In this document: positions 28,276 to 42,639 of the stretch, piece by piece
How the letters are laid out: every line of letters begins with the position of its first letter
Position numbering within the stretch: position 1 is the stretch's first letter
Assembly (NCBI GenBank): GCA_020635515.1
Contig: JACJZS010000002.1
Span: 1,162,273 to 1,226,272 of the forward strand
Origin: Flavobacteriales bacterium
Lineage (GTDB): Bacteria > Bacteroidota > Bacteroidia > Flavobacteriales > Weeksellaceae
Reading direction: 5' to 3'
Length of the DNA stretch: 64,000 nt
Made by a program: the position numbers and the translations under genes
Notes under the pieces: model-generated
Seen by the model: the letters and a program-made list of their open reading frames with translations, nothing else
Database searches by the model: none
What the model was told of the DNA's origin: nothing

Positions 28276-28923
28276 TTATCTTTTCTCTAAATTTTCAATT
28301 CGTTTTTCCAGCTCAAATAATTTAGAATAGTACTTGTTATCTTTTGTAGTACTGAGATGTGTCACTACGGAATAAACATTACCTTCACTTATTTTAAAAG
28401 TTTTATTTGTTTTTATCAGTGTTAAGTTTTCTTCTTTTACGCTAATTTTATCTATAAATATAAATCCATTTAAATTAACTATATATTCCCTTGAATCAAG
28501 AGTATTTTCATTCAGATTTAATTTAATAAGTAATAATAAATCTCCTTTTTGATAGAAATCTTGCGGGTTATCTAAAATTATAAAATGATTAAAAAATGTT
28601 TTTAGTTTTTCAGCTTGAACTTCATAGATAATACCATCTTTTTTTTCTAATTCTAGATTTTGAAGTAATTTACTTTGAATTACTTTTTCTGCTTCAGTAT
28701 AGTTGGCGATTTGATTTACAGTTAGTTTCTTTTTCAATAAATCATCAGTAGATAGTTCAAAATGATCCGATATGCGTAATAACGTCTCTATTTTCGGTTC
28801 AGCTCTTCCTTCCTCATACGAACTCACTACTCCTCTATTTAAATTAACCAATTCTCCAAACTGAGTTTGACTTAATCCCTTTAACTGCCTGATTTTTTTA
28901 ATATTTGTGCCAAAATACGACAT
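28276..28923 (-). CDS. XRE-family helix-turn-helix transcriptional regulator with a LexA/S24-like (apparently non-catalytic) C-terminal beta domain
   Basis: The HTH is IKKIRQLKGLSQTQFGELVNLNRGVVSSYEEGRAEP. The C-terminal ~120 aa have an S24-like strand pattern (GDLLLLI, NGFIFIDKI, VYSVVTHL) but no obvious Ser-Lys dyad. The start is taken at the internal Met (28923); the track start at 28977 adds a hydrophobic extension. Confidence 0.6.
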   Translation of the reverse strand: MSYFGTNIKKIRQLKGLSQTQFGELVNLNRGVVSSYEEGRAEPKIETLLRISDHFELSTDDLLKKKLTVNQIANYTEAEKVIQSKLLQNLELEKKDGIIYEVQAEKLKTFFNHFIILDNPQDFYQKGDLLLLIKLNLNENTLDSREYIVNLNGFIFIDKISVKEENLTLIKTNKTFKISEGNVYSVVTHLSTTKDNKYYSKLFELEKRIENLEKR

Positions 28924-28935
28924 AATGCAAAATGT

Positions 28936-29002
28936 ATTTGCAAATATACAGAAATAAATTGTTAATTTTATTTGCATTTATGATTTTTAACTGTATATTT
29001 GC
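28936..29002. promoter_or_regulatory. Candidate operator/promoter elements in the divergent regulator / psp-like operon intergenic region
   Basis: A perfect 10-bp palindrome ATTTGCAAAT (28936-28945). A 12-bp inverted repeat gcaaatatacag (28940-28951) / ctgtatatttgc (28991-29002). Further TTTGCAT half-sites at about 28971 and 29112. Confidence 0.25.
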
Positions 29003-29147: not shown

Positions 29148-29540
29148 ATGAAAAAAAAGAACCTTATAAAAGAGCTATTATTAGAACTAGAATATACAAT
29201 TACGCATCAAACTGACGATTTATCTGTATTTGTGATTGATAAAGAAGTAGATGGAATCAAAAATTTGGTAATTGCTTATTCCGAACCAATTCTTATCATA
29301 GAGCAGTTCTTATTCGAGATAAAAAATGAATCTCTCTTTATGTATAAAAATTTACTTAAAAAGAACAGAGATATTGTGCATGGAGCTTTTGTATTAGATG
29401 ATTCGGGAACTAAAGTGATTTTTAGAGACACCTTACAAACCGAAAATTTAGATAAAAATGAACTAGAAGCAAGTTTGAATTCTCTAAGTCTTTTACTAAG
29501 CGAATACTCAAAAGAAATTGTAGAATTTTCAAAAAATTAA
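29148..29540 (+). CDS. YbjN-fold / YjfI-like (DUF2170-like) small cytoplasmic protein, first gene of the psp-like operon
   Basis: 130 aa. It has the size and motif pattern of YbjN-type domains (hydrophobic core PILIIEQFLFEI, then LLKKNRDIVHGAFVLDDSGTKVIFRDTL, then an acidic helical tail). Only 30 bp separate it from pspA. The assignment is by pattern recognition only. Confidence 0.35.
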   Translation: MKKKNLIKELLLELEYTITHQTDDLSVFVIDKEVDGIKNLVIAYSEPILIIEQFLFEIKNESLFMYKNLLKKNRDIVHGAFVLDDSGTKVIFRDTLQTENLDKNELEASLNSLSLLLSEYSKEIVEFSKN

Positions 29541-29570: not shown

Positions 29571-30272
29571 ATGAACATATTTAAACGATTATTCAGAATA
29601 GGTGAAGCACAAGTTCATTCCACTATAGATAAACTTGAAGATCCAATCGCTATGACCGAACAAGGAATACGCGAAATGAAAGAGCAATTAGATAAAGCGA
29701 TTCAAGCATTAGCCGAAATAAAAGCTCTTGCCATTAGAAAGAAAAATGAAGTAGAATCCTCAAAAAATCAAGCAGATGAATACCAAAACAAAGCTATGAT
29801 TATACTAAAGCGTTCTTCAGAAGGAGAAATACCTCAAGAAGACGCAGATAGATTAGCTTCGGAAGCGATTAAAAAGAAAAATCAAGCACTAAATAATAGT
29901 AAAATTGCCACTCAAGCACAAGAAAAATATGAAACTGATGTTGCAAAAATGCAAAAAAACATCAATGAATTAAAAGCTGATATCTCTAAGTGGGAAGGAG
30001 AATTAAAAACATTAAAAGCAAGAGTAAAAGTATCGGAAGCAACAAAAAACATAAACAAAAGCATGGCGGCGATTGATTCTAACTCTACAGTTTCATTACT
30101 TGAAAGAATGAAAGAAAAAGTGGAAGAACAAGAATCATTAGCCGAAGCATACGGAGAAATTGTGGATTCATCAAAGAGCATAGATGAGGAAATTGACAGT
30201 TATACCAATCAAGAAGATATGCAAGTAGCATCTGAACTAGAAAAATTAAAAAACCAATTAAATAGACAATAA
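29571..30272 (+). CDS. pspA: PspA/IM30 family protein (phage-shock protein A / Vipp1-like, bacterial ESCRT-III)
   Basis: 233 aa. It opens with MNIFKRLFRIGEAQVHSTIDKLEDPIAMTEQGIREMKEQL, the canonical PspA N-terminus, and continues as a long coiled coil. Confidence 0.9.
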   Translation: MNIFKRLFRIGEAQVHSTIDKLEDPIAMTEQGIREMKEQLDKAIQALAEIKALAIRKKNEVESSKNQADEYQNKAMIILKRSSEGEIPQEDADRLASEAIKKKNQALNNSKIATQAQEKYETDVAKMQKNINELKADISKWEGELKTLKARVKVSEATKNINKSMAAIDSNSTVSLLERMKEKVEEQESLAEAYGEIVDSSKSIDEEIDSYTNQEDMQVASELEKLKNQLNRQ

Positions 30273-30275
30273 AAA

Positions 30276-30935
30276 ATGAATATAGAAGAGTTGATTTCTA
30301 TTTCCTTTTCTCCTGTAAATACAGTACTTACGATTTTCCTTATTTTAAGCGTTATCTACTGGTTATTTACAATTATATCGGGAATGGATATAGATTTGGG
30401 TATTGATTTTGATGCAGATATAGATGTTGATACCGATTTTGAGCATCCAGACTCTACTGTTGAAGTACCTCAAGACCCTTCTATGTTTATTCAATTTTTA
30501 AAATTTCTTAACCTAGATGTTATTCCTATCACATTTTTCATAACACTTACAATTCTATTTTCTTGGTTAATTTCGGTCAATTTAAATTACTATTTTCCAA
30601 TTCCAAATTGGTTAGGATTCCTTTTACTAATTCCCATATTTTTTGCAAGTATTACCGTAACTAAATTTGTCACTTTTCCTTTAAAAGGTATTTTTAAAAA
30701 CTTAAATCATCAAGGAGAAAAGACATATGATTTTTTAGGAAGAACAGGAAAACTAAAAGCAACTATACAAGAAAATAAGCTAGGAACAATGGAACTTTAT
30801 ATTCAAGGTGATCCTATAAAAATTTTAGTAAAAAGCAAAGACGGAATTAAACTAGAAGAAAATAGTTCTGTGGTTGTGGTGAACGAAAATCCAGACAAGA
30901 AATTTTACATCGTAGAACAAGATTATCAATTATAA
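30276..30935 (+). CDS. YqiJ-like inner-membrane protein with a C-terminal NfeD-type OB-fold (DUF1449-like)
   Basis: Acidic DxD-rich periplasmic loop, then TM helices, then a C-terminal beta-barrel GRTGKLKATIQENKLGTMELYIQGDPIKILVKS...VVVVNEN typical of NfeD partners of SPFH proteins. It starts 3 bp after the pspA stop. Confidence 0.75.
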   Translation: MNIEELISISFSPVNTVLTIFLILSVIYWLFTIISGMDIDLGIDFDADIDVDTDFEHPDSTVEVPQDPSMFIQFLKFLNLDVIPITFFITLTILFSWLISVNLNYYFPIPNWLGFLLLIPIFFASITVTKFVTFPLKGIFKNLNHQGEKTYDFLGRTGKLKATIQENKLGTMELYIQGDPIKILVKSKDGIKLEENSSVVVVNENPDKKFYIVEQDYQL

Positions 30936-30953
30936 AATTATTTATTTAACATT

Positions 30954-33047
30954 ATGAACATATCATTTATTATTACAGTTGCGGTAATTGCGATTGTAGC
31001 TTTAGGTCTTATTTTTTGGATTCTTTCCATGTATAAAAAGACAACTCAAGGTATCGTAATTGTGCGTACTGGATACGGAGGGACAAAAGTATTCTTTAAC
31101 GCAGGAATTGTAATTCCAATTATTCACAGAATGGAACTGATGGATATTTCCGTGAAAAAGTTAGAAATTGAAAGAGAAGCAAAAGACGGATTAATCTGCA
31201 AAGATAATATGCGTGCAGACATACAAGTTGCTTTTTTTATCCGAGTTAACAAATCTGCAGGAGACATTATTAATGTTGCTCAAACCATTGGTTGCAGTCG
31301 TGCTTCGGATATTGAAACATTACGTCAGCTTTTTGAAGCTAAATTTTCAGAAGCATTAAAAACCGTAGGTAAAAAGTTTGAATTTATAGAACTTTACGAA
31401 GCAAGAAGTGAATTTAGAAACGAAATTCTAAACATTATAGGTACAGATTTAAATGGTTACGTACTAGATGATTGTGCTATTGATTACCTAGAGCAAACTT
31501 CATTGCAATACCTAAATAAAGACAATATTCTCGATTCCGAAGGTATCAAAAAAATAACAGAACTAACTGCTGAACAGAATGTTAAAGCAAACTTTGTTCG
31601 TAGAGAAGAAGAAAAAACCATAAAAAAACAAAACGTAGAAGCTCGTGAAGCAATTCTTGAATTAGAAAAACAATTGGTAGAGAAAGAAGAATCCCAAAGA
31701 AGAGAAGTAGAAAACATTAAATCCAAGGAAAATGCTACTATTTTAAAGGTTCAAGAAGAAGAACGTTTAAAATATGAAACGGTACGAATTGCTACCGAAG
31801 AGCAACTTGCTATTGCAGAAGAAAATAAGTTACGCCAAGTTGTTATTGCTTCTAAAAATAAAGAACGTGCAGAGCTAGTAGAAACCGAAAGAGTAGAAAA
31901 AGACAGAGCATTAGAACAAACCGAAAGAGAAAGAATTGTTGCTCTTGCAGATATAGAAAAAGAAAAAGCGGTAGAGGTAGAAAAGAAAAACATTCAAGAT
32001 GTAATTCGAGATAGAGTTGCAATGGAAAAAACTGTAGTACAAGAAGAACAAAACAAACTCGACATAGAAGCATTTAAAACTGCAGATAGAAAGAAACAAG
32101 TAGAAATCACTCTTGCTCAACAAGAAGCAGAAAAAAGATTAATTCAAGAAATTAAAGCTGCCGAAGCGAGAAAACTTGCCGCAGAAAAAGATGCAGAAAA
32201 ATACGTTATCGAAGCACAAGCCAAAAGAGATGCTGCAGAAAAAGAAGCAAATGCAAGAATCATAATTGCCGAAGCTCAATCAAAAGAAGAAGCAGTTGTT
32301 GGCCTTTCAGAAGCTCAAGTAATGCATGCAAAAGCCGATGCATCAGAAAGACAAGGTATTGTAGAAGCTAGTATAATTGAGAAAAAAGCAAAAGCGGAAG
32401 CTGTAGGAATCAAAGAAAAAGCATCTGCAAAAAAAGACGATGGTCTTGCAGAAGCACTTGTGATTCAAGAAAAACTAACAGCACAAGCGACAGGAGAAAA
32501 AGAAAAAGCTCTTGCCGAAGCTGCTGGAATTACAGAAAAAGCGGAAGCAATGAAAAAACTAAACGAAGCAGGAAGAGAACACGAAGAGTTTAGACTGAAA
32601 CTTGCCAAAGAAAAAGAAGTAGAGCTTGCTCATATAAATATTCAAAAAGATATTGCACAAGCACAAGCTAGCGTTCTTGCCGAAGCATTTAAAACTGCTG
32701 ATATAGACATTGTTGGTGGAGATAATACATTCTTCGAAAATGTAATCAAACAAATTTCTGCAGGACAAGGAATAGACAAATTCATTAAACATTCCGAAAA
32801 TGCACAAATTATTAAAGAATCTTTATTAAGCGATGATTCTAGTGACAATATAATTGGTAAAGTTTTAAACCTTGTAGATAAATATAATGTTTCCTCAGAA
32901 GACATCAAGAACCTAACCATTTCCAGTTTGATTTTTAAACTCAATGGAATGGTAGAAACTTCTTCCGAAAAAGGAATCCTAAACCAAGCACTTGATTTTG
33001 CTAAACAATTAGGCGTTGAAAACAAACCAATTAGCAAAGTAAAATAA
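30954..33047 (+). CDS. Flotillin family (SPFH/band-7) protein, YqiK/FloT-like, with an expanded Ala/Glu/Lys-rich coiled coil
   Basis: N-terminal TM helix, then an SPFH domain (IVRTGYGGTKVFFNAGIVIPIIHRMELMDISVKKLEIEREAKDGLICKDNMRADIQVAFFIRV), then a ~350-aa low-complexity EA-repeat coiled coil and a flotillin C-terminal domain. Confidence 0.9.
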   Translation: MNISFIITVAVIAIVALGLIFWILSMYKKTTQGIVIVRTGYGGTKVFFNAGIVIPIIHRMELMDISVKKLEIEREAKDGLICKDNMRADIQVAFFIRVNKSAGDIINVAQTIGCSRASDIETLRQLFEAKFSEALKTVGKKFEFIELYEARSEFRNEILNIIGTDLNGYVLDDCAIDYLEQTSLQYLNKDNILDSEGIKKITELTAEQNVKANFVRREEEKTIKKQNVEAREAILELEKQLVEKEESQRREVENIKSKENATILKVQEEERLKYETVRIATEEQLAIAEENKLRQVVIASKNKERAELVETERVEKDRALEQTERERIVALADIEKEKAVEVEKKNIQDVIRDRVAMEKTVVQEEQNKLDIEAFKTADRKKQVEITLAQQEAEKRLIQEIKAAEARKLAAEKDAEKYVIEAQAKRDAAEKEANARIIIAEAQSKEEAVVGLSEAQVMHAKADASERQGIVEASIIEKKAKAEAVGIKEKASAKKDDGLAEALVIQEKLTAQATGEKEKALAEAAGITEKAEAMKKLNEAGREHEEFRLKLAKEKEVELAHINIQKDIAQAQASVLAEAFKTADIDIVGGDNTFFENVIKQISAGQGIDKFIKHSENAQIIKESLLSDDSSDNIIGKVLNLVDKYNVSSEDIKNLTISSLIFKLNGMVETSSEKGILNQALDFAKQLGVENKPISKVK

Positions 33048-33063
33048 GATTTGATGTATAAGT

Positions 33064-33103
33064 TTAAGAAGTTAAGTTTTAGATAAATAACTTAACTTCT
33101 TAA
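33064..33103 (+). terminator. Perfect 15-bp-stem hairpin 17 bp after the flotillin stop; candidate terminator or attenuator without a strong U-tract
   Basis: ttaagaagttaagtt - ttagataaat - aacttaacttcttaa. Confidence 0.4.
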
Positions 33104-33116
33104 TTATGAGTAAGTA

Positions 33117-33326
33117 ATGTTTTCAATAATTATAAATATATTTTCTATTTCTATTGTGTTTTTTTGTATTCTAAAATGCATTAAATATGATAAAATTATC
33201 AAAAAAAAAATAAACAATATTTTACTAACCTATGAAGAAAGTAAAGTATATCAAAAGCTTAAAAGCTATTTTCTATATGCATTTATTACATTACTAATTT
33301 TACAATTTTTAGGCTTAATTCTGTGA
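33117..33326 (+). CDS. Small two-TM ORF in the 378-bp AT-rich spacer between the flotillin and giant ATPase genes; may be spurious
   Basis: 69 aa with two hydrophobic helices, in a very AT-rich region that favours chance ORFs. Confidence 0.2.
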   Translation: MFSIIINIFSISIVFFCILKCIKYDKIIKKKINNILLTYEESKVYQKLKSYFLYAFITLLILQFLGLIL

Positions 33327-33425: not shown

Positions 33426-36400
33426 ATGTCCGAAGAGTCACAAAACAATCAAGTTTCCAAGGAAACGTACGAAATCATAAAAACTCGTCTTAATAAGCAA
33501 AAAGACGATCTAATTCTGCGTTTAAAAAAGTTAAACGAAAATAGAAATGAAGTTTTTGGAAACAAAGAGTTTAGTTTAATTGCAAACGAAAGAATCTCCA
33601 CAGAACAAGCATGCAAACCAAAGGATATTTTTTCCATTGAAAATCATGTAATCCTCGGATACAACGTGCATCTAGGTTTAAAAAATGAAATTGATATTTC
33701 CGATATTTTTTCTGTTTATTCTTTTGAGAACAATACGTTTGAACCATCTCATCTTAACTTCTTGTCTGATGCAAATTTTATAGACGAAATAAAAAACCTG
33801 TATAAATACTACCGAAATACCAATTTTAAACGTTTTTACTCTACCGAAAATTATCTTTATTTCGTATTTCAACTTTCGGAATCTGTATCGGATATCAAAG
33901 CATTTAAATTTCTAATTGAAAAAGAACAAATTACTTATATTGACTCTCGTTCGGCATCAGAAGTTACTTTCCCTCAACAACACAGTTTTAAATGGGAAAA
34001 AGCCACACGCGACATGCAAAAAACGGGAAAATTTCCTCACGTTTCTCTTGCAAATAAAGTTTTTGTAGAGGCAATTGACGGAGATATTACCATAAAAGTG
34101 GAAGATAACACCGACTCTGGTCTTGGAATCTATTCGGAAGAAGTACAGCACAAAGATCAATCGTTAGACGATGCCGAAATTCATTTTTGTGATTTAGGTA
34201 ATTTAGTTATTTTCAAGATAAAACCGTATCGAGAAGAAGAGCGATATTTTATTTATAATCACAAAGAAAAAAAGGTTTTTAAAGTTGATTCTTTGGAAAA
34301 TTCTGGTATTCTTTTGCCAGAAAATCAAGGAATCATATTTCCAAACGGATACATTCTGCAAAATGGAGAATCGAAAGTAATACATCAAGAAAACCAAGAT
34401 ATTCGTTTTTTGAAACGTATTGCTAGTTCAAATGGAGAAAACTTTCTCTTCGTATACTACAACATTACCTCATCAGATTATTTAATTCTTCCTTACAGCA
34501 TCATTTCTCAAACCATAGATACTCCTATTAGCTGTACGGGTTTTTCTATATTTGATGATGGAACTTTAATTTATTTAAAAGCTAATGAAGAAACAACTAA
34601 AAACCATTTGGTACAACTTTGGGAAACACCTTTTTCCAAGGAAATTAAAATTAACAAGGAACTTGAAAATAATCTTTTGTTTAAAATTGGCAATAAAGAT
34701 TTGGTTCGTCTTCTCGCTGATTGCAACGAATTAATTACATTATTAGAAAAAGAAGATTCTTACTCAGGATTATACAACGATATTGTAACAGAATCTACCG
34801 ACATTTTAGATGCGTATTATTTTTTAAATGAAGAAAAAGTAGGAGAAATTCAAATTCCGTTACTTGAAATTCGAAAAATTGCTCATTCTGCAATAAATGA
34901 ATACGAGAAAGTAGTTGAAATTCGAAAAAATACAAAACAAAAAGTATCCGAAGTTCAAGAAAAATGTGAGAATATTCTTCAAACTACCAAACATTTAGAA
35001 TACAATACTCTTACAGAATACATAGATAATCTTTCTGAACTAAGGAAAATCGTTGGAGAAATTATTTCTGCTCGAAACCTTTCTTATGTAGATATTTCAC
35101 TATTAGACGAACTAGAAAATAAAATTAAAGAACGTTCCGAAGAGCTTTCAGGTGCATGTGTTAAATTTTTACTTCAAGATAACGCTTTAACTCCTTACGA
35201 AGAAAAAGCAAATAATCTATCCCAAAAGATTGAGAATTTAACAAAAGCTATACAGAAAAAAGAAATTGAATCCGAACTCGATGAACTCGCTTTCCAATTG
35301 GAGCTTTTAGTTGATGTTGTAAATAATTTAAAAATAGAAGATACTTCTCAATCAACTGAAATTATTCAAAATATTTCTGTAATCTTTTCACGAATCAATA
35401 CAGAGAGAATAGAACTCAACAAAAAGGTAAAAGAAGTTTCTTCTAAAGAATTATCTGCTGACTTTCAAGCTCAAATTACACTTTTCGACCAATCTGTAGT
35501 CAACTTTATGGAGCTTGCAAATACTCCAGAAAAATGCGATGAATACCTTACCAAATTATCTTTAAGTTTAGAAGAACTAGAAACCAAATTTGTAGATTTT
35601 GAGGAATTTATTGAGGAAATAGCAGAAAAACGAGAAAATGTATACAATCATTTTCAAGCAAAAAAAGTTCAACTCAACGAACAAAGAAATAAAAGAACCA
35701 ACACTTTGTTTTCTTCTGCCAAAAGAATTCTAAATGGAATAAAAAACAAAGCAGAAAACTTTAAATCAGAAACTGAAATCAATGGTTTTTTTGCTTCGGA
35801 TTTAATGGTAAATAAAGTAATTGACTTTTCTAATCAACTGTTAGAATTAGAAGATTCTGCAAAATCGGAAGAAATTCTCACGTTGCTCAAAACAACGCAA
35901 CAAGAAGTAATAAGGAAACTAAAAGATAAAAACGAACTTTTTAAAGACGGAGATAATATTATTTCTTTTGGCGAATACAAATTTGCAATCAATACTCAAA
36001 AGTTAGATTTATCTCTTGTTTTAAGAGAAAATCAATACTATTTTCATCTAACAGGAACTAGCTTTTACGAAAAAATTAAAGATGAATCCATTTATCATTT
36101 AAAAGAAGTTTGGAATCAAGAATATAAATCCGAAAACAAATCAGTTAAGCATTTCGAATACTTAGCTTTTCAAATCTTCTCTAAGAACAAAGAGCTAAAT
36201 AATGTCGATAAAAACACTTCTCTCATACAAGAGTATATGTCCTCTAACTATTCCGAAGGATATGTAAAAGGAATACACGATTCAGATGCTTTGCAATTAA
36301 CAAATGTTTTACAGCATCTTCATAATGAACTGGGAATTCTAAAGTTTAATCCAAAAGAACGAGCATTAGCTCAGCTTTTTTGGAATCAACAATCCAGCGA

Positions 36401-38249
36401 ATATAAAGAGCTTTTAGAAAAGCAATTCAGTGCAATTCAGTTGGTAAATGAAACCTTGAATAGCAATGCAACATTTGATTATATTGTTGATGAGGTAGCT
36501 GAAAAAATTGCGGAATTTTCTATCGAATTTCAAGAATTTAAAAATACAAATCTAAATAACTCTGTAAGTTACTTAATCAAAGAAAATAGAAATGAATTTA
36601 CAATTTCTAAAACTGCATCGGATTTTTACCTCTCATTTCTAAAATACTTAAAAAATAAAACAAAAGATATTGACTTCTTAAATAAAATTGAAAACTTAAA
36701 AAATCATGTAGAAGAATGTTTTTCGATTATTTATAGTTCGTTGAAAAGTTATGCTGAAATCGAAAATTATTCCATAGAAGAATCGTATTTAGTAGAAGTT
36801 GCGGTACTTTACTTATTGAATAATTATCATGAAAATCAAGTGCTAAATGTTCCAACTCAAATCGAACTGAAAGAACTAAAGTCTCTTGAAAGCAATCAAA
36901 TATACAAGCTAGATTATCATCAATTTACTCGAAAACTCGATTTATACACACATGAAATTGTTCCGAAGTTCGATGAGTTAAAAAAGCTAAAACATCAATT
37001 GGTAGTTGAGAAAAAAAATCAATTAAAAATTGATAGCTTCCAGTCAAATGTATTGAGCTCATTTGTAAGAAACAAACTTATCAACCAGGTATATTTTCCT
37101 CTTATTGGAGCAAATCTATCCAAACAATTAGGAACAGTAGGCGAAAATAAACGCACAGATAAAATGGGAATGTTGCTTTTAGTTTCTCCTCCAGGATACG
37201 GAAAAACTACACTTATGGAATACCTCGCCAATCGACTTGGGTTAATTTTTATGAAAATAAATGCTCCATCAATAGGACATTCCATTACTTCTGTAGATCC
37301 TTCTCAGGCAGATAATTCTGCTGCTAAACAGGAGTTAGAAAAATTAAATCTTGCTTTTGAGATGGGAGATAATGTAATGTTGTATTTAGATGACATTCAG
37401 CATTGTAATCCTGAGTTTTTACAAAAATTCATTTCTCTTGCAGACGGACAAAGAAAGATAGAAGGTATTTACAACGGAGAGTCAAAAACCTATGATTTAC
37501 GTTCCAAAAGATTTTGTTTGGTAATGGCAGGAAATCCATATACAGAAAGTGGAGAAAAATTCAAAATACCAGATATGCTTTCCAATCGTGCAGATATCTA
37601 CAATTTAGGAGATATTGCAGGTAATAAACGAGATTTATTCGATTTAAGTCTTATAGAGAATGCGTTAATGTCTAATGTGTACCTTAGAAAACTAACGGAA
37701 TTATCATTAGAAAATCTGTATAGTTTACTCAGTTTAATTCAAAACCCAAATAGTTCTAGTAAAATTAAAGGTAACTTTTCTAATCAAGAAATAGAAGATT
37801 TTAAATCTGTGTTGTTAAAGTCAATTCAAATTAGAAATACGGTAATAAAAGTAAATGAATTGTACATAAAATCTTCTGCGATGAGCGACGACTATCGTAA
37901 AGAACCAGTATTTAAACTGCAAGGTTCATACAGAGATATGAATAAACTGTTAAGTAAAGTGCAACCGATACAAAATGAAAGTGAAATTACAGATATTGTA
38001 TTAGAGCATTATCAGAATGAAAGTCAAACACTTACTATCGATGCAGAAGCAAATCTACTTAAACTTCGTGAATTGATGAATCTTCTATCTAATGAAGAAA
38101 AAAGCAGATGGGAGGAAATAAAAACTACTTTCCAAAAAAATCAAAAGTTTAAATCACTAGGAGATAATGATAGAATGAGTCAGATAGTTGCCTTGCTTTC
38201 TGAGTTTTCTGACGGTTTAAATGGAATCAAAGATGTTTTAAAAAAGTAG
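33426..38249 (+). CDS. Giant (1607 aa) protein: N-terminal ~400-aa beta-rich domain, a long helical/coiled-coil middle, and a C-terminal AAA_5-type (MoxR/McrB/dynein-like) ATPase module
   Basis: Walker A LLLVSPPGYGKTT (about nt 37186-37212). Walker B plus sensor region MLYLDDIQHCNPEFLQKFISLAD. Sensor-1/Arg region LVMAGNPYTESGEKFKIPDMLSNRADIYNL. This collinear pattern matches AAA_5 ATPases (LLDEINRA-NPEV...; ..TMNP.....L..AL.NRF). The ORF is uninterrupted, with no frameshifts. Confidence 0.85.
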   Translation: MSEESQNNQVSKETYEIIKTRLNKQKDDLILRLKKLNENRNEVFGNKEFSLIANERISTEQACKPKDIFSIENHVILGYNVHLGLKNEIDISDIFSVYSFENNTFEPSHLNFLSDANFIDEIKNLYKYYRNTNFKRFYSTENYLYFVFQLSESVSDIKAFKFLIEKEQITYIDSRSASEVTFPQQHSFKWEKATRDMQKTGKFPHVSLANKVFVEAIDGDITIKVEDNTDSGLGIYSEEVQHKDQSLDDAEIHFCDLGNLVIFKIKPYREEERYFIYNHKEKKVFKVDSLENSGILLPENQGIIFPNGYILQNGESKVIHQENQDIRFLKRIASSNGENFLFVYYNITSSDYLILPYSIISQTIDTPISCTGFSIFDDGTLIYLKANEETTKNHLVQLWETPFSKEIKINKELENNLLFKIGNKDLVRLLADCNELITLLEKEDSYSGLYNDIVTESTDILDAYYFLNEEKVGEIQIPLLEIRKIAHSAINEYEKVVEIRKNTKQKVSEVQEKCENILQTTKHLEYNTLTEYIDNLSELRKIVGEIISARNLSYVDISLLDELENKIKERSEELSGACVKFLLQDNALTPYEEKANNLSQKIENLTKAIQKKEIESELDELAFQLELLVDVVNNLKIEDTSQSTEIIQNISVIFSRINTERIELNKKVKEVSSKELSADFQAQITLFDQSVVNFMELANTPEKCDEYLTKLSLSLEELETKFVDFEEFIEEIAEKRENVYNHFQAKKVQLNEQRNKRTNTLFSSAKRILNGIKNKAENFKSETEINGFFASDLMVNKVIDFSNQLLELEDSAKSEEILTLLKTTQQEVIRKLKDKNELFKDGDNIISFGEYKFAINTQKLDLSLVLRENQYYFHLTGTSFYEKIKDESIYHLKEVWNQEYKSENKSVKHFEYLAFQIFSKNKELNNVDKNTSLIQEYMSSNYSEGYVKGIHDSDALQLTNVLQHLHNELGILKFNPKERALAQLFWNQQSSEYKELLEKQFSAIQLVNETLNSNATFDYIVDEVAEKIAEFSIEFQEFKNTNLNNSVSYLIKENRNEFTISKTASDFYLSFLKYLKNKTKDIDFLNKIENLKNHVEECFSIIYSSLKSYAEIENYSIEESYLVEVAVLYLLNNYHENQVLNVPTQIELKELKSLESNQIYKLDYHQFTRKLDLYTHEIVPKFDELKKLKHQLVVEKKNQLKIDSFQSNVLSSFVRNKLINQVYFPLIGANLSKQLGTVGENKRTDKMGMLLLVSPPGYGKTTLMEYLANRLGLIFMKINAPSIGHSITSVDPSQADNSAAKQELEKLNLAFEMGDNVMLYLDDIQHCNPEFLQKFISLADGQRKIEGIYNGESKTYDLRSKRFCLVMAGNPYTESGEKFKIPDMLSNRADIYNLGDIAGNKRDLFDLSLIENALMSNVYLRKLTELSLENLYSLLSLIQNPNSSSKIKGNFSNQEIEDFKSVLLKSIQIRNTVIKVNELYIKSSAMSDDYRKEPVFKLQGSYRDMNKLLSKVQPIQNESEITDIVLEHYQNESQTLTIDAEANLLKLRELMNLLSNEEKSRWEEIKTTFQKNQKFKSLGDNDRMSQIVALLSEFSDGLNGIKDVLKK

Positions 38250-38316: not shown

Positions 38317-39765
38317 ATGCAAGAAGGCGAAAAAATAATTGTGGAGTCTATACAAGGTACGACTACTCAAATTGTAGAAGATAAAAAGAATACAAAAAAA
38401 GTATTTTTAGAAAGTTACGGATGCCAAATGAACTTTTCTGATAGCGAAATTGTAGCTTCTATTTTGCAAAAACAAGGATACAATACAACATCTGATTTAA
38501 AAGATGCAGACTTAATTTTACTTAATACGTGTTCCATTAGAGATAAAGCAGAACAAACCGTTAGAAAAAGGCTATCTGAATTTAATTCGCTTAAAAAAAA
38601 CGAAAAAAAACCTACCATTGGAGTTTTAGGTTGTATGGCAGAGCGACTAAAAGCTAAATTTTTAGAAGAAGAAAAATTAGTTGACTTAGTTGTTGGTCCT
38701 GATGCGTATAAAGATTTGCCAAACCTTTTACAGGAAACAGATGACGGTAGAAATGCAATTAACGTTATTCTTTCTAAAGATGAAACCTACGGAGATATTC
38801 AACCTGTTCGTCTAGGAGGAAATGGTGTAACGGCATTTGTTACCATTACGCGTGGTTGCGATAATATGTGTACATTTTGTGTAGTTCCGTTTACTCGTGG
38901 TAGAGAACGTTCTCGTGACCCGCATTCTATACTAAATGAATGTGTAGATTTATATGAAAAAGGATACAAAGAAATAACACTTCTCGGACAAAATGTTGAC
39001 TCTTATCTTTGGTTTGGAGGTGGACCCAAAAAAGATTTTGAGAAAGCATCTGATATTCAAAAGGAAACTGCAATAAACTTTGCTCAACTGCTAGAAATGA
39101 TTGCTAAAAAACTTCCTGAAACGCGTATTCGTTTTTCTACTTCCAACCCTCAAGATATGAGTTTAGAGGTGTTTGAAGCAATCAAAAAATACAATAATAT
39201 TTGTAAATATGTTCATTTACCTGTACAAAGTGGAAGTACATCTGTTTTAAAAAGAATGAATAGACAACATACACGAGAAGAATATATAGATTTAATCAAA
39301 AAAGCTAAAGAAATCGTTCCTGATATTGCCTTCTCTCACGATATGATTGCAGGTTTTTGTGGAGAAACAGAAGAAGAACACAAAGATACATTGTCTTTAA
39401 TGGAAGAAATTAAATACGACTTTGGTTATATGTTTGCGTACTCTGATCGTCCAGGCACTCCTGCTCACAAAAAAATGGAAGATGATGTTCCTCATGAAAT
39501 CAAAAAGCGACGGTTAAGTGAAATCATTGAATTGCAAAGTCAACATTCTTTGTTTAGAATGAAATCTTATGTTGGGAAAACATACGAAGTACTGATTGAA
39601 GGAGATTCCAAAAAGGATAAAAACCAATGGAAAGGAAGAATTTCTCAGAATGCTATGGTAGTATTCAACAAAACAGAAAACGAAAACATAGGAGATTTTG
39701 TTCAAGTGAAAATCAATGATTGTACTTCTGCAACTTTGATAGGAGAAGTGATTAATACTATTTGA
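38317..39765 (+). CDS. miaB: tRNA-2-methylthio-N6-dimethylallyladenosine synthase
   Basis: MTTase N-terminal (YGCQMNFSDSE), a radical-SAM CxxxCxxC (CDNMCTFCVVP) and a C-terminal TRAM domain. 482 aa. Confidence 0.9.
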   Translation: MQEGEKIIVESIQGTTTQIVEDKKNTKKVFLESYGCQMNFSDSEIVASILQKQGYNTTSDLKDADLILLNTCSIRDKAEQTVRKRLSEFNSLKKNEKKPTIGVLGCMAERLKAKFLEEEKLVDLVVGPDAYKDLPNLLQETDDGRNAINVILSKDETYGDIQPVRLGGNGVTAFVTITRGCDNMCTFCVVPFTRGRERSRDPHSILNECVDLYEKGYKEITLLGQNVDSYLWFGGGPKKDFEKASDIQKETAINFAQLLEMIAKKLPETRIRFSTSNPQDMSLEVFEAIKKYNNICKYVHLPVQSGSTSVLKRMNRQHTREEYIDLIKKAKEIVPDIAFSHDMIAGFCGETEEEHKDTLSLMEEIKYDFGYMFAYSDRPGTPAHKKMEDDVPHEIKKRRLSEIIELQSQHSLFRMKSYVGKTYEVLIEGDSKKDKNQWKGRISQNAMVVFNKTENENIGDFVQVKINDCTSATLIGEVINTI

Positions 39766-39769
39766 ATTT

Positions 39770-40774
39770 ATGGAAATAAAAGAGTATAATACACTTTTTG
39801 TAGATATAAAGCAAAAAATACAGAACGCTCAAATAAAGGCTATTGTTGCTGTAAATACCGAATTAATTATACTTTATTGGAATATAGGAAATAGTATTTT
39901 AAAACAACAACAAAGCCTAGGATGGTCAGCTAGCGTTATTCCTCTTTTATCAAAAGATTTAAAAAAATCATTCCCTAAAATTAAAGGGTATTCGGAAAGG
40001 AATTTAAGTTATATGCTTCGTTTTGCTAAGGAATATAATGATGAGGTATTTTTGCAACAGACTGTTGCAAAAATACCTTGGGGGCATAATATTTTACTTA
40101 TTGAAAAATTAAAAAATATTAAAATACGAAAATGGTATATTCAAAAATGCATAGAAAACAACTGGAGTAGAGATGTATTAGATTTTCAAATTAAATCTAA
40201 CTTATATAAAAGGGAAGGAAGTTCAATTAATAATTTTAAGAATACTTTGCCTAAACCTTTTTCTGATTTAGCAAACCAAACATTAAAAGATCCTTATATT
40301 TTTGATTTTCTTTCATTAGATGAAAAAATTAGAGAAAAAGATATAGAACGACAATTAATTGAACATATCAGTAAATTTTTATTAGAACTTGGTAAAGGGT
40401 TTGCTTATATAGGAAATCAATATCATTTAAAAATAGCAGAAAATGATTATTATTTAGATTTACTTTTTTATCATACTAAATTAAAATGTTATGTCGTAAT
40501 TGAATTAAAAAACACAAAATTTATTCCAGAGTTTGCGGGGAAATTAAACTTTTATTTATCTGCTGTTGATACCCTGATAAAAGATGAATCTGATAATCCT
40601 ACTATTGGTATTCTGTTATGTAAAGATAAAAATAATATAGAGGCTGAATTTGCCTTAAGAGATTTAAATAAACCAATGGGTATAAGTGAATTGAAATTAA
40701 TAGAAAACTTACCTGAAGACCTTAAAAGTAGCTTGCCTACTATTGATGAAATTGAAAAAGAATTCAAGAAATAA
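39770..40774 (+). CDS. PDDEXK-nuclease domain protein, DUF1016 / YhcG family
   Basis: The N-terminal YhcG-like region, the WSRDVL motif and a C-terminal restriction-endonuclease-like core (D...ELK). This family is frequently found in accessory contexts. Confidence 0.8.
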   Translation: MEIKEYNTLFVDIKQKIQNAQIKAIVAVNTELIILYWNIGNSILKQQQSLGWSASVIPLLSKDLKKSFPKIKGYSERNLSYMLRFAKEYNDEVFLQQTVAKIPWGHNILLIEKLKNIKIRKWYIQKCIENNWSRDVLDFQIKSNLYKREGSSINNFKNTLPKPFSDLANQTLKDPYIFDFLSLDEKIREKDIERQLIEHISKFLLELGKGFAYIGNQYHLKIAENDYYLDLLFYHTKLKCYVVIELKNTKFIPEFAGKLNFYLSAVDTLIKDESDNPTIGILLCKDKNNIEAEFALRDLNKPMGISELKLIENLPEDLKSSLPTIDEIEKEFKK

Positions 40775-40783
40775 ATTCAACTG

Positions 40784-41344
40784 ATGAAGAAAATGGATTT
40801 CAAAACATTAAACTTACAATATCCAATAGGAACTTTTGAAGAATCAGATTATTATGGCAATCAGAAAATTTTTGAAATGATATCCGAAATAGAAAAATTC
40901 CCATTAAAGCTAAAAGAAATAGTATCTTCTTTAAGTGAAGAAGAGTTAAATATTCCTTATAGAGAAAAAGGTTGGAATTCTAAACAAGTGGTTCATCATT
41001 TAGCTGATAGTCATTTAAATGCTTATTTAAGATTTAAACTAGCGTTAACAGAAAATAATCCTACTATAAGACCTTATTTAGAAGATAAATTTGGAGAATT
41101 AGAAGAATACAATACAACTCCAATTAAGTTATCATTAGAATTCATTGATGTATTACATCAAAAGTGGATTATTTTACTCAATACATTGTCGGAAAATGAT
41201 TTAGAAAAGACGTATTTTCATCCAGAGTTAAATGAAAATGTATCATTAAAAACTGCTGTTAAAATGTATGCTTGGCATTCGGAACATCATTTTCAGCATA
41301 TAGTTTTAGTTAAAAATGAAAAACAATCCTTTTCTAAATTCTAA
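40784..41344 (+). CDS. DinB/YfiT-family putative metal-dependent hydrolase
   Basis: 186 aa. Carries a His triad typical of the DinB_2/YfiT four-helix bundle (HHLADSH..., WHSEHHFQH). Confidence 0.75.
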   Translation: MKKMDFKTLNLQYPIGTFEESDYYGNQKIFEMISEIEKFPLKLKEIVSSLSEEELNIPYREKGWNSKQVVHHLADSHLNAYLRFKLALTENNPTIRPYLEDKFGELEEYNTTPIKLSLEFIDVLHQKWIILLNTLSENDLEKTYFHPELNENVSLKTAVKMYAWHSEHHFQHIVLVKNEKQSFSKF

Positions 41345-41382
41345 TTACTAACCACCAAAACCTAACCACTCAAACTTAAACA

Positions 41383-42639
41383 ATGATAAACCTACAAACC
41401 ATAAAACAACGTTTTGAAATCATAGGGAACGACCCTCAACTTAATCGTGCACTAGAAAAAGCAGTACAAGTTGCTCCTACAGAAATATCGGTACTTGTAG
41501 TGGGAGAAAGTGGTGTAGGTAAAGAATTTATACCTAAAATCATTCATCAGAATTCTGCACGAAAACATGAAAAATACATTGCTGTAAATTGCGGAGCAAT
41601 TCCAGAAGGAACCATAGATTCAGAACTTTTTGGTCACGAAAAAGGTGCGTTTACCGGAGCTGATAAAACGCGAAAAGGTTATTTTGAAGTTGCAGATAAC
41701 GGAACCATTTTTCTAGATGAAATAGGAGAACTACCAATGTCTTCTCAAGTACGTCTTTTACGTGTGCTAGAAAATGGAGAATTTATAAAAGTTGGTTCAT
41801 CAAACGTTCAAAAAACAAATGTAAGAATTATTGCAGCGACCAATGTTAATATGATGTCTGCCGTTGAAAATGGAAAATTTAGAGAAGATTTGTATTACCG
41901 CCTGAATACCGTACAGATTGATATGCCTGCATTACGAAACAGAAAAGAAGATATTCATTTGCTTTTCAGGAAGTTTTCAGGAGATTTTGCTGAAAAATAT
42001 GGGATTCCTAACGTAAAATTAACTTCTGATGCAGTACATTACATCGCTAATTATTATTGGCCAGGAAACATTCGTCAGCTAAAAAACTTTGCCGAACAAA
42101 TAACAGTTCTCGAAAAAGAACGTGAAATTTCCCTTCAAAAAGTACAGGAATACTTACCAAACAATACTTCATTAATCCTCTCAAAAGAAGGTAAGAGAAA
42201 TGCAGAAACCGATTTTTCTAATGAACGAGAAATACTTTACAAAATCCTTTTTGATATGAGAAAAGATTTAAACGATTTAAAATCTCTTACGTTGGAACTC
42301 ATCAATAATCCGAATGAAAATCTATCTTCTACTCAGCAGGATTTAGTAGATAAAGTGTTTAATTCTCGTAAAGAGGAAAGTACACCTTTACTCTTGGTTG
42401 AAAATAAATCCGATAATTATACTAAATTTGAAGACGAAAACGATAATCAATTTGAAGAACTGGAATACGAAGAATTACAAATGCCACAAGATGAATCGTT
42501 ATCTATAGTAGACAAAGAAATAGAGCTTATAAGAAAAGCCCTCGATAAATACAAAGGAAAAAGGAAATCAGCTGCTAAAGAATTAGGAATCTCAGAAAGA
42601 ACATTATACAGGAAAATTAAACAATATGACTTGGAATAA
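41383..42639 (+). CDS. Sigma-54-dependent transcriptional activator (bEBP) lacking an N-terminal receiver/sensor domain
   Basis: It starts directly in the AAA+ sigma-54 interaction domain (GESGVGKE Walker A, GAFTGA loop, DEIGEL Walker B, R-finger) and ends in a Fis-type HTH (ELGISERTLYRKIK). An acidic linker separates the two. Confidence 0.85.
   Translation: MINLQTIKQRFEIIGNDPQLNRALEKAVQVAPTEISVLVVGESGVGKEFIPKIIHQNSARKHEKYIAVNCGAIPEGTIDSELFGHEKGAFTGADKTRKGYFEVADNGTIFLDEIGELPMSSQVRLLRVLENGEFIKVGSSNVQKTNVRIIAATNVNMMSAVENGKFREDLYYRLNTVQIDMPALRNRKEDIHLLFRKFSGDFAEKYGIPNVKLTSDAVHYIANYYWPGNIRQLKNFAEQITVLEKEREISLQKVQEYLPNNTSLILSKEGKRNAETDFSNEREILYKILFDMRKDLNDLKSLTLELINNPNENLSSTQQDLVDKVFNSRKEESTPLLLVENKSDNYTKFEDENDNQFEELEYEELQMPQDESLSIVDKEIELIRKALDKYKGKRKSAAKELGISERTLYRKIKQYDLE

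Follow-up and report, generated by a model that had tools for sequence, protein, structure and literature searches.

A predicted soluble MoxR-like AAA+ ATPase encoded by the last gene of a PspA and flotillin operon in a Flavobacteriales genome

Operons in which genes for a CesT/Tir-like protein, PspA, a YqiJ-like protein and a flotillin are associated with an ATPase gene have been described as a class by computational means, and the ATPase has been called 'Betapropeller+Coiled-coil+AAA-ATPase' (Ravi et al. 2024, PMC11237479). Shorter operons devoid of PspA were noted in the same work, and the example reported from Dokdonia donghaensis has a gene order identical to that of the locus dealt with here, along with a divergent gene encoding a 'cHTH+Protease' product. 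Our locus resides in a stretch of 64,000 nucleotides, hereafter the window, from a Flavobacteriales bacterium (assembly GCA_020635515.1, contig JACJZS010000002.1, positions 1,162,273 to 1,226,272 of the forward strand), and the subject of this work is the giant ATPase gene found at positions 33426..38249 of it. The pair of genes lying upstream encodes homologs of E. coli YqiJ and YqiK, and is comparable to yqiJ-yqiK of E. coli and yuaF-floT of B. subtilis. The E. coli operon, however, has no ATPase gene, and a yqiJK pair with no ATPase is also the subject of the paper on Shewanella SO1377. According to a 2025 review (PMC7619361), bacterial PspA seems to have no Vps4-like ATPase. The ATPase family described below provides a strongly conserved candidate for a part in the assembly and disassembly of bacterial flotillin microdomains and PspA/ESCRT-III-like polymers, to which it is genetically tied.

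The giant gene is the last of a membrane-stress operon, in which it is preceded by genes for a CesT/Tir-like chaperone, PspA, a YqiJ/NfeD-like membrane protein and a YqiK-like flotillin, and this context is the most informative fact about it. Its product is a MoxR-like AAA+ ATPase, predicted to be soluble, which probably remodels the membrane assemblies made by flotillin, and by PspA as well. As a component that would use ATP in bacterial flotillin/PspA membrane systems, it is a sensible candidate.

Genes of the operon and their conservation

Synteny was evaluated in 80 related loci, 67 of which have enough upstream DNA to assess the trio formed by the YqiJ-like, flotillin and ATPase genes. 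The operon of the window and the divergent gene at its border are organized as follows.

28276..28977, minus strand: divergent gene of the Cro/XRE type, with a helix-turn-helix (HTH) domain (HTH_3, E 3e-13); syntenic in 41 of the 80 loci
29148..29540, plus strand: CesT/Tir-like chaperone, 130 amino acids (aa), first gene of the operon (PF22550 CesT_Tir_1, E 5e-50); syntenic in 38 loci
29571..30272, plus strand: PspA/IM30, bacterial ESCRT-III superfamily, 233 aa (PF04012, E 5e-40); syntenic in 44 of the 80 loci
30276..30935, plus strand: YqiJ/YuaF-like (NfeD-type) membrane protein, 219 aa, three transmembrane (TM) segments; syntenic in 62 loci
30954..33047, plus strand: YqiK-like flotillin, 697 aa; single TM segment, at the N terminus, SPFH domain and long coiled coil
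33426..38249, plus strand: giant ATPase, a single ATG-to-stop open reading frame (ORF), 1607 aa

The operon conforms to the class of Ravi et al. 2024 as judged by Pfam matches, hhalign comparisons, number of TM segments, gene order and synteny (38-66 of the 80 loci). Domain order, length and invariant motifs of the ATPase are also the same, and no material difference from the published family was noticed. Neither Pfam nor NCBIfam matches the proteins of 219 and 697 aa even at an E-value of 10, and their identity was settled by profile-profile comparison to YqiJ and YqiK. The ortholog profile of the former aligns to E. coli YqiJ with an hhalign probability of 96.6% (E 6e-10), and also matches the soluble NfeD-like domain of B. 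subtilis YuaF (2k14, E 0.003). The ortholog profile of the latter aligns to E. coli YqiK with a probability of 100% (E 4e-43). The protein encoded by the divergent gene, which is likely the operon regulator, has a C-terminal domain that resembles the S24/LexA fold, but the domain is degenerate, and lacks the conserved Ser/Lys dyad.

The C-terminal 268 residues of the flotillin (430-697) have no detectable similarity to the C terminus of E. coli YqiK (hhalign probability 1.4%). Since the two C termini differ, and the operon of E. coli lacks the ATPase, this region could be a docking module, and residues 430-697 may, on the basis of this single comparison, be the docking site for the ATPase. A conserved segment similar to SSEDIKNLTI is found in the same region.

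In 64 of the 67 assessable loci, the three genes of the trio lie side by side on the same strand, and this is the case in loci of Planctomycetota, Verrucomicrobiota, Desulfobacterota and Kiritimatiellota. The HTH/CesT/PspA extension is found in 38-44 of the 80 loci, all in Bacteroidota. The most distant members of the family keep the trio, which is found bare in Proteus mirabilis, and is immediately followed by a PspA gene in an Actinomycetota-like locus (L082). A ten-gene version of the operon is carried by the plasmid pQBR103 of Pseudomonas fluorescens SBW25 (L086/L087, NC_009444.1 84437-97641), where genes for YjfI (CesT-like), PspA, a rhomboid protease, DUF2491, DUF350, DUF1190, a glutathionylspermidine-synthase-like protein, a YqiJ-like protein, an SPFH protein and the ATPase follow each other in this order. 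The pQBR103 operon joins a yjfI-yjfJ cluster of the polyamine type and the rhomboid protease to the trio, and a phospholipase D gene lies some 8 kb downstream. The link to PspA thus recurs in three phyla, being found in Bacteroidota (44 loci), in the Actinomycetota-like locus L082 and in Pseudomonas (pQBR103). The genomic coupling of the ATPase to the flotillin/NfeD pair is near-obligate, that to PspA and CesT-like proteins is recurrent.

The ATPase family, its domains and the AAA+ core

The G+C content of the window is 30%, and about 8.1% (0.081) of random codons would be stops at its base frequencies, so that the probability of encountering 1607 sense codons in a row is about 1e-59. The ORF is real, and the uninterrupted 4.8-kb frame pointed out in the initial annotation, which had been made by a model from the letters and their translations, spans indeed positions 33426-38249. 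The protein has a mass of 186.5 kDa and a pI of 5.2, and hydropathy analysis detected no TM-like segments; it is predicted to be soluble and cytoplasmic. A 100% identical protein, encoded on a 1.55-Mb contig of a Flavobacteriales metagenome-assembled genome, is already in NCBI (P0001) under the product name 'DNA repair ATPase', and the nearest relatives from other organisms (P0002-P0031) are 62-63% identical to the copy of the window.

The protein has the domains, the single C-terminal AAA+ module and the motifs of the DUF3686 + DUF7902 + AAA family, and is a typical member of this catalogued family, not a new kind of protein. The architecture had been initially regarded as unusual, which is an overstatement, because it is the fixed layout of the family, and is already in the literature. 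More than 1,600 homologs with the same domain list and the same length emerged from a first search. An exhaustive search with the N-terminal 480 aa retrieved 617 clusters at 50% identity, 208 of which below 1e-30, the full-length members ranging from 1500 to 2036 aa. At least 587 genomes host the family, one genome per species being scanned, and belong to Bacteroidota, Planctomycetota, Verrucomicrobiota, Desulfobacterota and Kiritimatiellota. A search started from a distant member adds Actinomycetota (Ilumatobacter, Streptomyces, Actinoplanes, Kitasatospora), Myxococcota, Acidobacteriota and Gammaproteobacteria. Out of 72,556 plasmid records only 13 have the gene; most of these are megaplasmids, or chromosomes registered as plasmids, and the carriers add Deinococcus, Vibrio, Proteus and the megaplasmid pQBR103 of P. 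fluorescens to the list. No family member was found on viral contigs. Domains and motifs of the protein are listed below.

33510..34820, plus strand: DUF3686 (PF12458), aa 29-465; E 6e-170, profile positions 2-448 of 448
34674..35939, plus strand: helical-bundle region, aa 417-838, fourteen helices in the AlphaFold2 model
35181-35435, plus strand: DUF7902 (PF25472), aa 586-670; E 6e-22
35958..36818, plus strand: small beta unit, aa 845-883, then a well-ordered helical domain, aa 887-1131; AlphaFold2, predicted local distance difference test (pLDDT) ~90
37143..37610, plus strand: AAA+ alpha/beta core, aa ~1240-1395; Pfam and AlphaFold2
37185-37211, plus strand: Walker A, SPPGYGKTT, aa 1254-1262; sequence motif
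37374-37394, plus strand: Walker B, VMLYLDD, with D1322 and D1323 at 37389-37394; sequence motif, within LYLDDIQH
37455-37496, plus strand: pre-sensor-1 beta-hairpin, aa 1344-1357; AlphaFold2
37533-37535, plus strand: sensor-1 N1370, within MAGNPY, aa 1367-1372; sequence motif
37587-37589, plus strand: arginine-finger candidate R1388, within IPDMLSNRAD, aa 1381-1390; motif and position
37629..38246, plus strand: helical lid and C-terminal helices, three of which long, aa 1402-1607; AlphaFold2
37932-37934, plus strand: sensor-2 candidate R1503, within the invariant LQGSYR motif; assigned as sensor-2 from position only

Two AlphaFold2 models, built on alignments of 44 sequences, together span the whole chain. 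The model of aa 1180-1607 has a pLDDT of 88 and a predicted template modelling score (pTM) of 0.81; that of aa 1-1200 has a pLDDT of 85 and a pTM of 0.52, which makes the mutual placement of its domains uncertain. In the DUF3686 region, a helix (aa 14-44) packs onto a beta-propeller made of about 26 strands (aa 50-400, pLDDT ~90). Foldseek matches to this propeller include WD40 and 7-blade propellers (E 1e-5 to 1e-4), all generic. The region is followed by the helical bundles, the two small domains, a hairpin and a long connecting helix. A coatomer-like reading was dropped as unsupported, since TM scores stayed at 0.07-0.13 in the long Foldseek alignments to IFT-A, Elp1 and nucleoporins. The helical mid-domain (aa 887-1131) has no sequence relative in the PDB, and carries a G949-x-H951-D952-x-D954 motif (window positions 36270-36287) invariant in 176-179 of 179 homologs. 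In PDB searches, run with the single protein and with the family profile, matches did not extend beyond some 40 residues surrounding Walker A, and no solved structure was retrieved for any member of the family. The initial estimates of some 400 beta-rich residues followed by some 800 helical ones are accurate. The middle region is helical, as proposed, but is not the heptad-like coiled coil envisaged, being rather made of short helical bundles and two extra small domains. The N terminus is the DUF3686 propeller, and not a known enzyme domain, an eventuality left open at the outset.

In a set of 179 full-length homologs at 26-63% identity, 178-179 sequences retain K1260, T1261, D1322, D1323, N1370, R1388, R1491 and R1503. 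The same holds for the family motifs SPPGYGKTT, DDIQH, MAGNPYT, PDMLxNR and LQGSYR, all present here. The motifs quoted in the initial annotation were found at aa 1254-1262, 1317-1326, 1367-1372 and 1381-1390, and conservation of the Walker B Asp-Asp and of the sensor Asn, which it advised to check, was observed in 178 of 179 homologs. Strong selection had also been surmised, and the full length of the protein is conserved in 120 close and 179 distant homologs, the least conserved stretch being aa 1001-1150. All the ATPase motifs are thus intact and do not vary, as predicted for an active AAA+ enzyme under strong selection.

The assignment to the AAA_5 group, made initially in preference to STAND, ABC or SMC ATPases, is corroborated. 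AAA_5 (PF07728) matches aa 1250-1375 with 26.7 bits, above the cut-off of 22, and the Pfam scan found no SMC or ABC match, so that the ABC/SMC-type core that would have contradicted the assignment is not what the protein carries. Generic AAA (PF00004) matches aa 1250-1330 with 29.9 bits, and since it slightly outscores AAA_5, sequence alone does not discriminate between the two. In the model, a pre-sensor-1 beta-hairpin, formed by strands aa 1344-1349 and 1352-1357, precedes the strand at 1363-1369, as in MoxR proteins (CbbQ, NorQ, RavA), midasin and dynein, and the closest solved structures to the core are MoxR/AAA_5 proteins, CbbQ and NorQ being the closest relatives. The 'NP' sensor-1 motif and the 'xPxxLxxR' arginine-finger segment are also read in common with the AAA_5 group, and R1388 lies at the end of helix 4, just ahead of strand 5, the usual position of the arginine finger.

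There are also differences from the MoxR group. Identity is only 15-16%. The MoxR clade has been defined by a beta-hairpin insert in helix 2 (PMC7159879); here, helix 2 is modelled as a short helix (aa 1280-1283), a non-regular loop of 14 residues and a second helix (1298-1313), with no hairpin (pLDDT ~93, in the model). Walker B has DD rather than DE. A vWA/MIDAS domain was detected neither in the ATPase itself nor in any of the products of ten flanking genes included in the scan, which leaves the ATPase with no such partner in the protein or the operon. MoxR proteins are stand-alone ATPases of about 300 aa, while this core lies behind some 1200 aa of propeller and helical bundles. The core is a MoxR-like (AAA_5-type) AAA+ module, yet no textbook MoxR.

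The database names tell a different story. The Pfam description of PF12458 reads 'ATPase involved in DNA repair', and NCBI, as said, calls the product 'DNA repair ATPase'. In line with a protein engaged in DNA repair are a weak RuvB_N match over the P-loop (E 2.5e-4, below the RuvB_N cut-off) and the presence of DinB_2 and YhcG nuclease genes downstream in the window. The RuvB similarity is, however, confined to about 40 residues around Walker A, and among the Pfam matches there is neither SMC_N nor an ABC signature, and no domain for DNA binding or of a nuclease. The two Walker motifs are 60 residues apart in one contiguous C-terminal AAA+ fold, and not in the two halves of a split ABC head, at variance with SMC, Rad50, SbcC and RecN. 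The downstream genes, YhcG included, are syntenic in none of the 80 loci, while the upstream membrane genes are syntenic. DUF3686 is mentioned in none of the papers found, no paper pairs a 'DNA repair ATPase' with flotillin, and none was found that backs a DNA role. A function in DNA repair is highly improbable. The name, for which no evidence was found, most likely stems from coiled-coil similarity, and should not be propagated.

Plausible partners and role of the ATPase

The role that we regard as probable is that of a soluble MoxR-like AAA+ enzyme of the flotillin operon, acting on membrane assemblies. The C-terminal AAA+ modules would form a ring, the likeliest form being a hexamer with a mass of about 1.1 MDa. 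Through the arms made by the propeller and the helical bundles, the ring would be attached to the cytoplasmic flotillin/NfeD scaffold and, in Bacteroidota, to PspA polymers too. Binding and hydrolysis of ATP would then remodel, load or disassemble the membrane-bound assemblies. The action would be chaperone-like, as that of other MoxR ATPases on a partner protein, and comparable to that of Vps4 on ESCRT-III, or of FtsH in HflK/C cages. Assembly of a ring, physical binding to flotillin or PspA, and the direction and physiological trigger of the reaction are features that we infer. A more detailed version, possible but doubtful, envisages a MoxR-type ring of about 1 MDa, which docks through its propeller and spectrin-like arms on flotillin cages, and in some lineages on PspA/ESCRT-III polymers, and assembles, opens or recycles both, residues 430-697 of the flotillin serving as the docking site. 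If true, the family would provide the missing ATP-driven engine of bacterial membrane-scaffold dynamics, a counterpart of Vps4, or of FtsH in HflK/C, issued from a different AAA+ lineage.

These parallels have limits. In archaea and eukaryotes Vps4/CdvC is likewise an AAA+ protein coupled to a member of the ESCRT-III superfamily, the coupling to PspA being here genomic, and it is a plausible functional analog. HflK/C-FtsH and prohibitin/m-AAA protease similarly pair an SPFH scaffold with an AAA+ enzyme, and an NfeD-type protein is part of the picture as well (PMC2636767). In contrast to FtsH and m-AAA proteases, the giant ATPase has no protease domain and no TM segment. Moreover, the single N-terminal TM suggests that the bulk of the flotillin is cytoplasmic here, in contrast to HflK/C cages, and any caging would in this case be putative.

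Which of the neighbors is the client deserves attention. PspA might be the true one, and the ATPase a functional analog of Vps4 that disassembles or recycles PspA polymers, flotillin being only a recruiting platform. The recurrent link to PspA would fit, but PspA is not adjacent in loci of Planctomycetota, Verrucomicrobiota, Desulfobacterota and Kiritimatiellota, or in Proteus, where flotillin and YqiJ are. Matches to MIT domains score no better than those to spectrin, BAG, GAT or designed bundles, and are hence unspecific. The ATPase is MoxR-like, and falls outside the classical clade of Vps4: it has no N-terminal MIT domain, has a pre-sensor-1 insert, and its closest fold is not a classical one. 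We consider this alternative unlikely. As flotillin and YqiJ are constant neighbors, and PspA is restricted to some lineages, the flotillin pair is ranked as the primary partner of the ATPase, and its interaction with the YqiJ/flotillin pair, rather than with PspA, is the one to be tested first. The dissimilarity between the C terminus of this flotillin and that of YqiK is a further hint in favor of the flotillin pair. Hundreds of species host the family, among which tractable ones such as Proteus mirabilis, Flavobacterium, Chryseobacterium, Streptomyces, and Pseudomonas fluorescens SBW25 (pQBR103).

Remodelling of flotillin and PspA assemblies by the ATPase has to be weighed against several observations. 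Three of the 67 assessable loci (L064, L066 and L069) have the giant gene with no adjacent flotillin or YqiJ-like gene. PspA and CesT do not flank the gene in any non-Bacteroidota locus of the 80, and PspA therefore cannot be an obligatory substrate. The gap of 378 bp that separates the ATPase gene from the flotillin gene, and the hairpin it contains (see below), make co-transcription of the two genes uncertain. No experiment on any member of the family was found in the searchable literature. Two hallmarks of MoxR proteins were not seen, a beta-hairpin in helix 2 of the model and a vWA partner in the operon. Finally, Walker B ends in DD and not in the canonical hhhhDE, D1323 being kept in 178 of 179 homologs and never replaced by Glu, and hydrolysis may consequently be slow or switch-like. 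An invariant DD suggests that slow or regulated ATP hydrolysis would be a trait of the whole family.

The latter feature is what gives room to a mainly structural interpretation, according to which the protein is a spectrin-like tether or scaffold lying under the membrane, and the AAA+ module a nucleotide-controlled switch of oligomerisation rather than a motor. Yet, the invariance of the sensor-1 Asn and of the arginine-finger and sensor-2 candidates is the pattern expected of a hydrolysing enzyme, and CbbQ and NorQ, to which the protein is structurally closest, remodel their targets actively. A purely structural switch is distinctly unlikely.

MoxR-type ATPases are also core components of several conflict systems (PMC7159879), and the protein might serve in anti-phage defence or inter-genomic conflict, similarly to McrB-type systems or to MoxR-vWA ternary systems. 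PADLOC models weakly match the P-loop region (mad8, E 0.0024; TRIP13, E 0.006), a PDC-S02/YhcG gene lies 1.5 kb downstream, and one copy of the ATPase gene is on the megaplasmid pQBR103. The PADLOC models, however, match only generic P-loop similarity, and no vWA protein, effector or partner with variable domains was found. Synteny is stable and vertical-looking, and the neighbors are housekeeping genes. The absence from viral contigs, the paucity of plasmid records and the lack of synteny of YhcG point in the same direction, and an involvement in conflicts appears very improbable.

The gap before the ATPase gene and the genes downstream

The distance between flotillin and ATPase genes usually ranges from 20 to 380 bp in other genomes, and the gap of 378 bp found here is somewhat longer than typical. 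Genes unrelated to one another are at times inserted in the gap in other genomes. In the window, a perfect AT-rich inverted repeat of 13 bp (AAGAAGTTAAGTT / AACTTAACTTCTT, positions 33066-33101), devoid of a T-run, is located 19 bp past the flotillin stop codon, and may be a terminator or an attenuator between the two genes. The Bacteroidota promoter motif TAnnTTTG (-7) was not found in the gap, and a scan for sigma-70 promoters and terminators, ill-suited to Bacteroidota, gave only a background level of hits. The gap also hosts an ORF of 69 aa (33117-33326, plus strand), whose product would have two segments of strong hydrophobicity. Since none of the 80 related loci has an equivalent of this ORF, it is probably not a gene. 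Scans of the window for tRNAs and Rfam families gave no matches.

Downstream of the ATPase, the intervals 38317-39765 and 40784-42639, both on the plus strand, encode housekeeping-looking products, namely a MiaB-like radical-SAM methylthiotransferase, a DinB_2 protein and a sigma-54 activator. The YhcG-type nuclease of the PD-(D/E)XK fold (DUF1016) lies in between, at 39770-40774 on the plus strand, 1.5 kb from the ATPase gene, and is recognized by the PADLOC model of PDC-S02, a candidate defence family, with an E-value of 1e-147.

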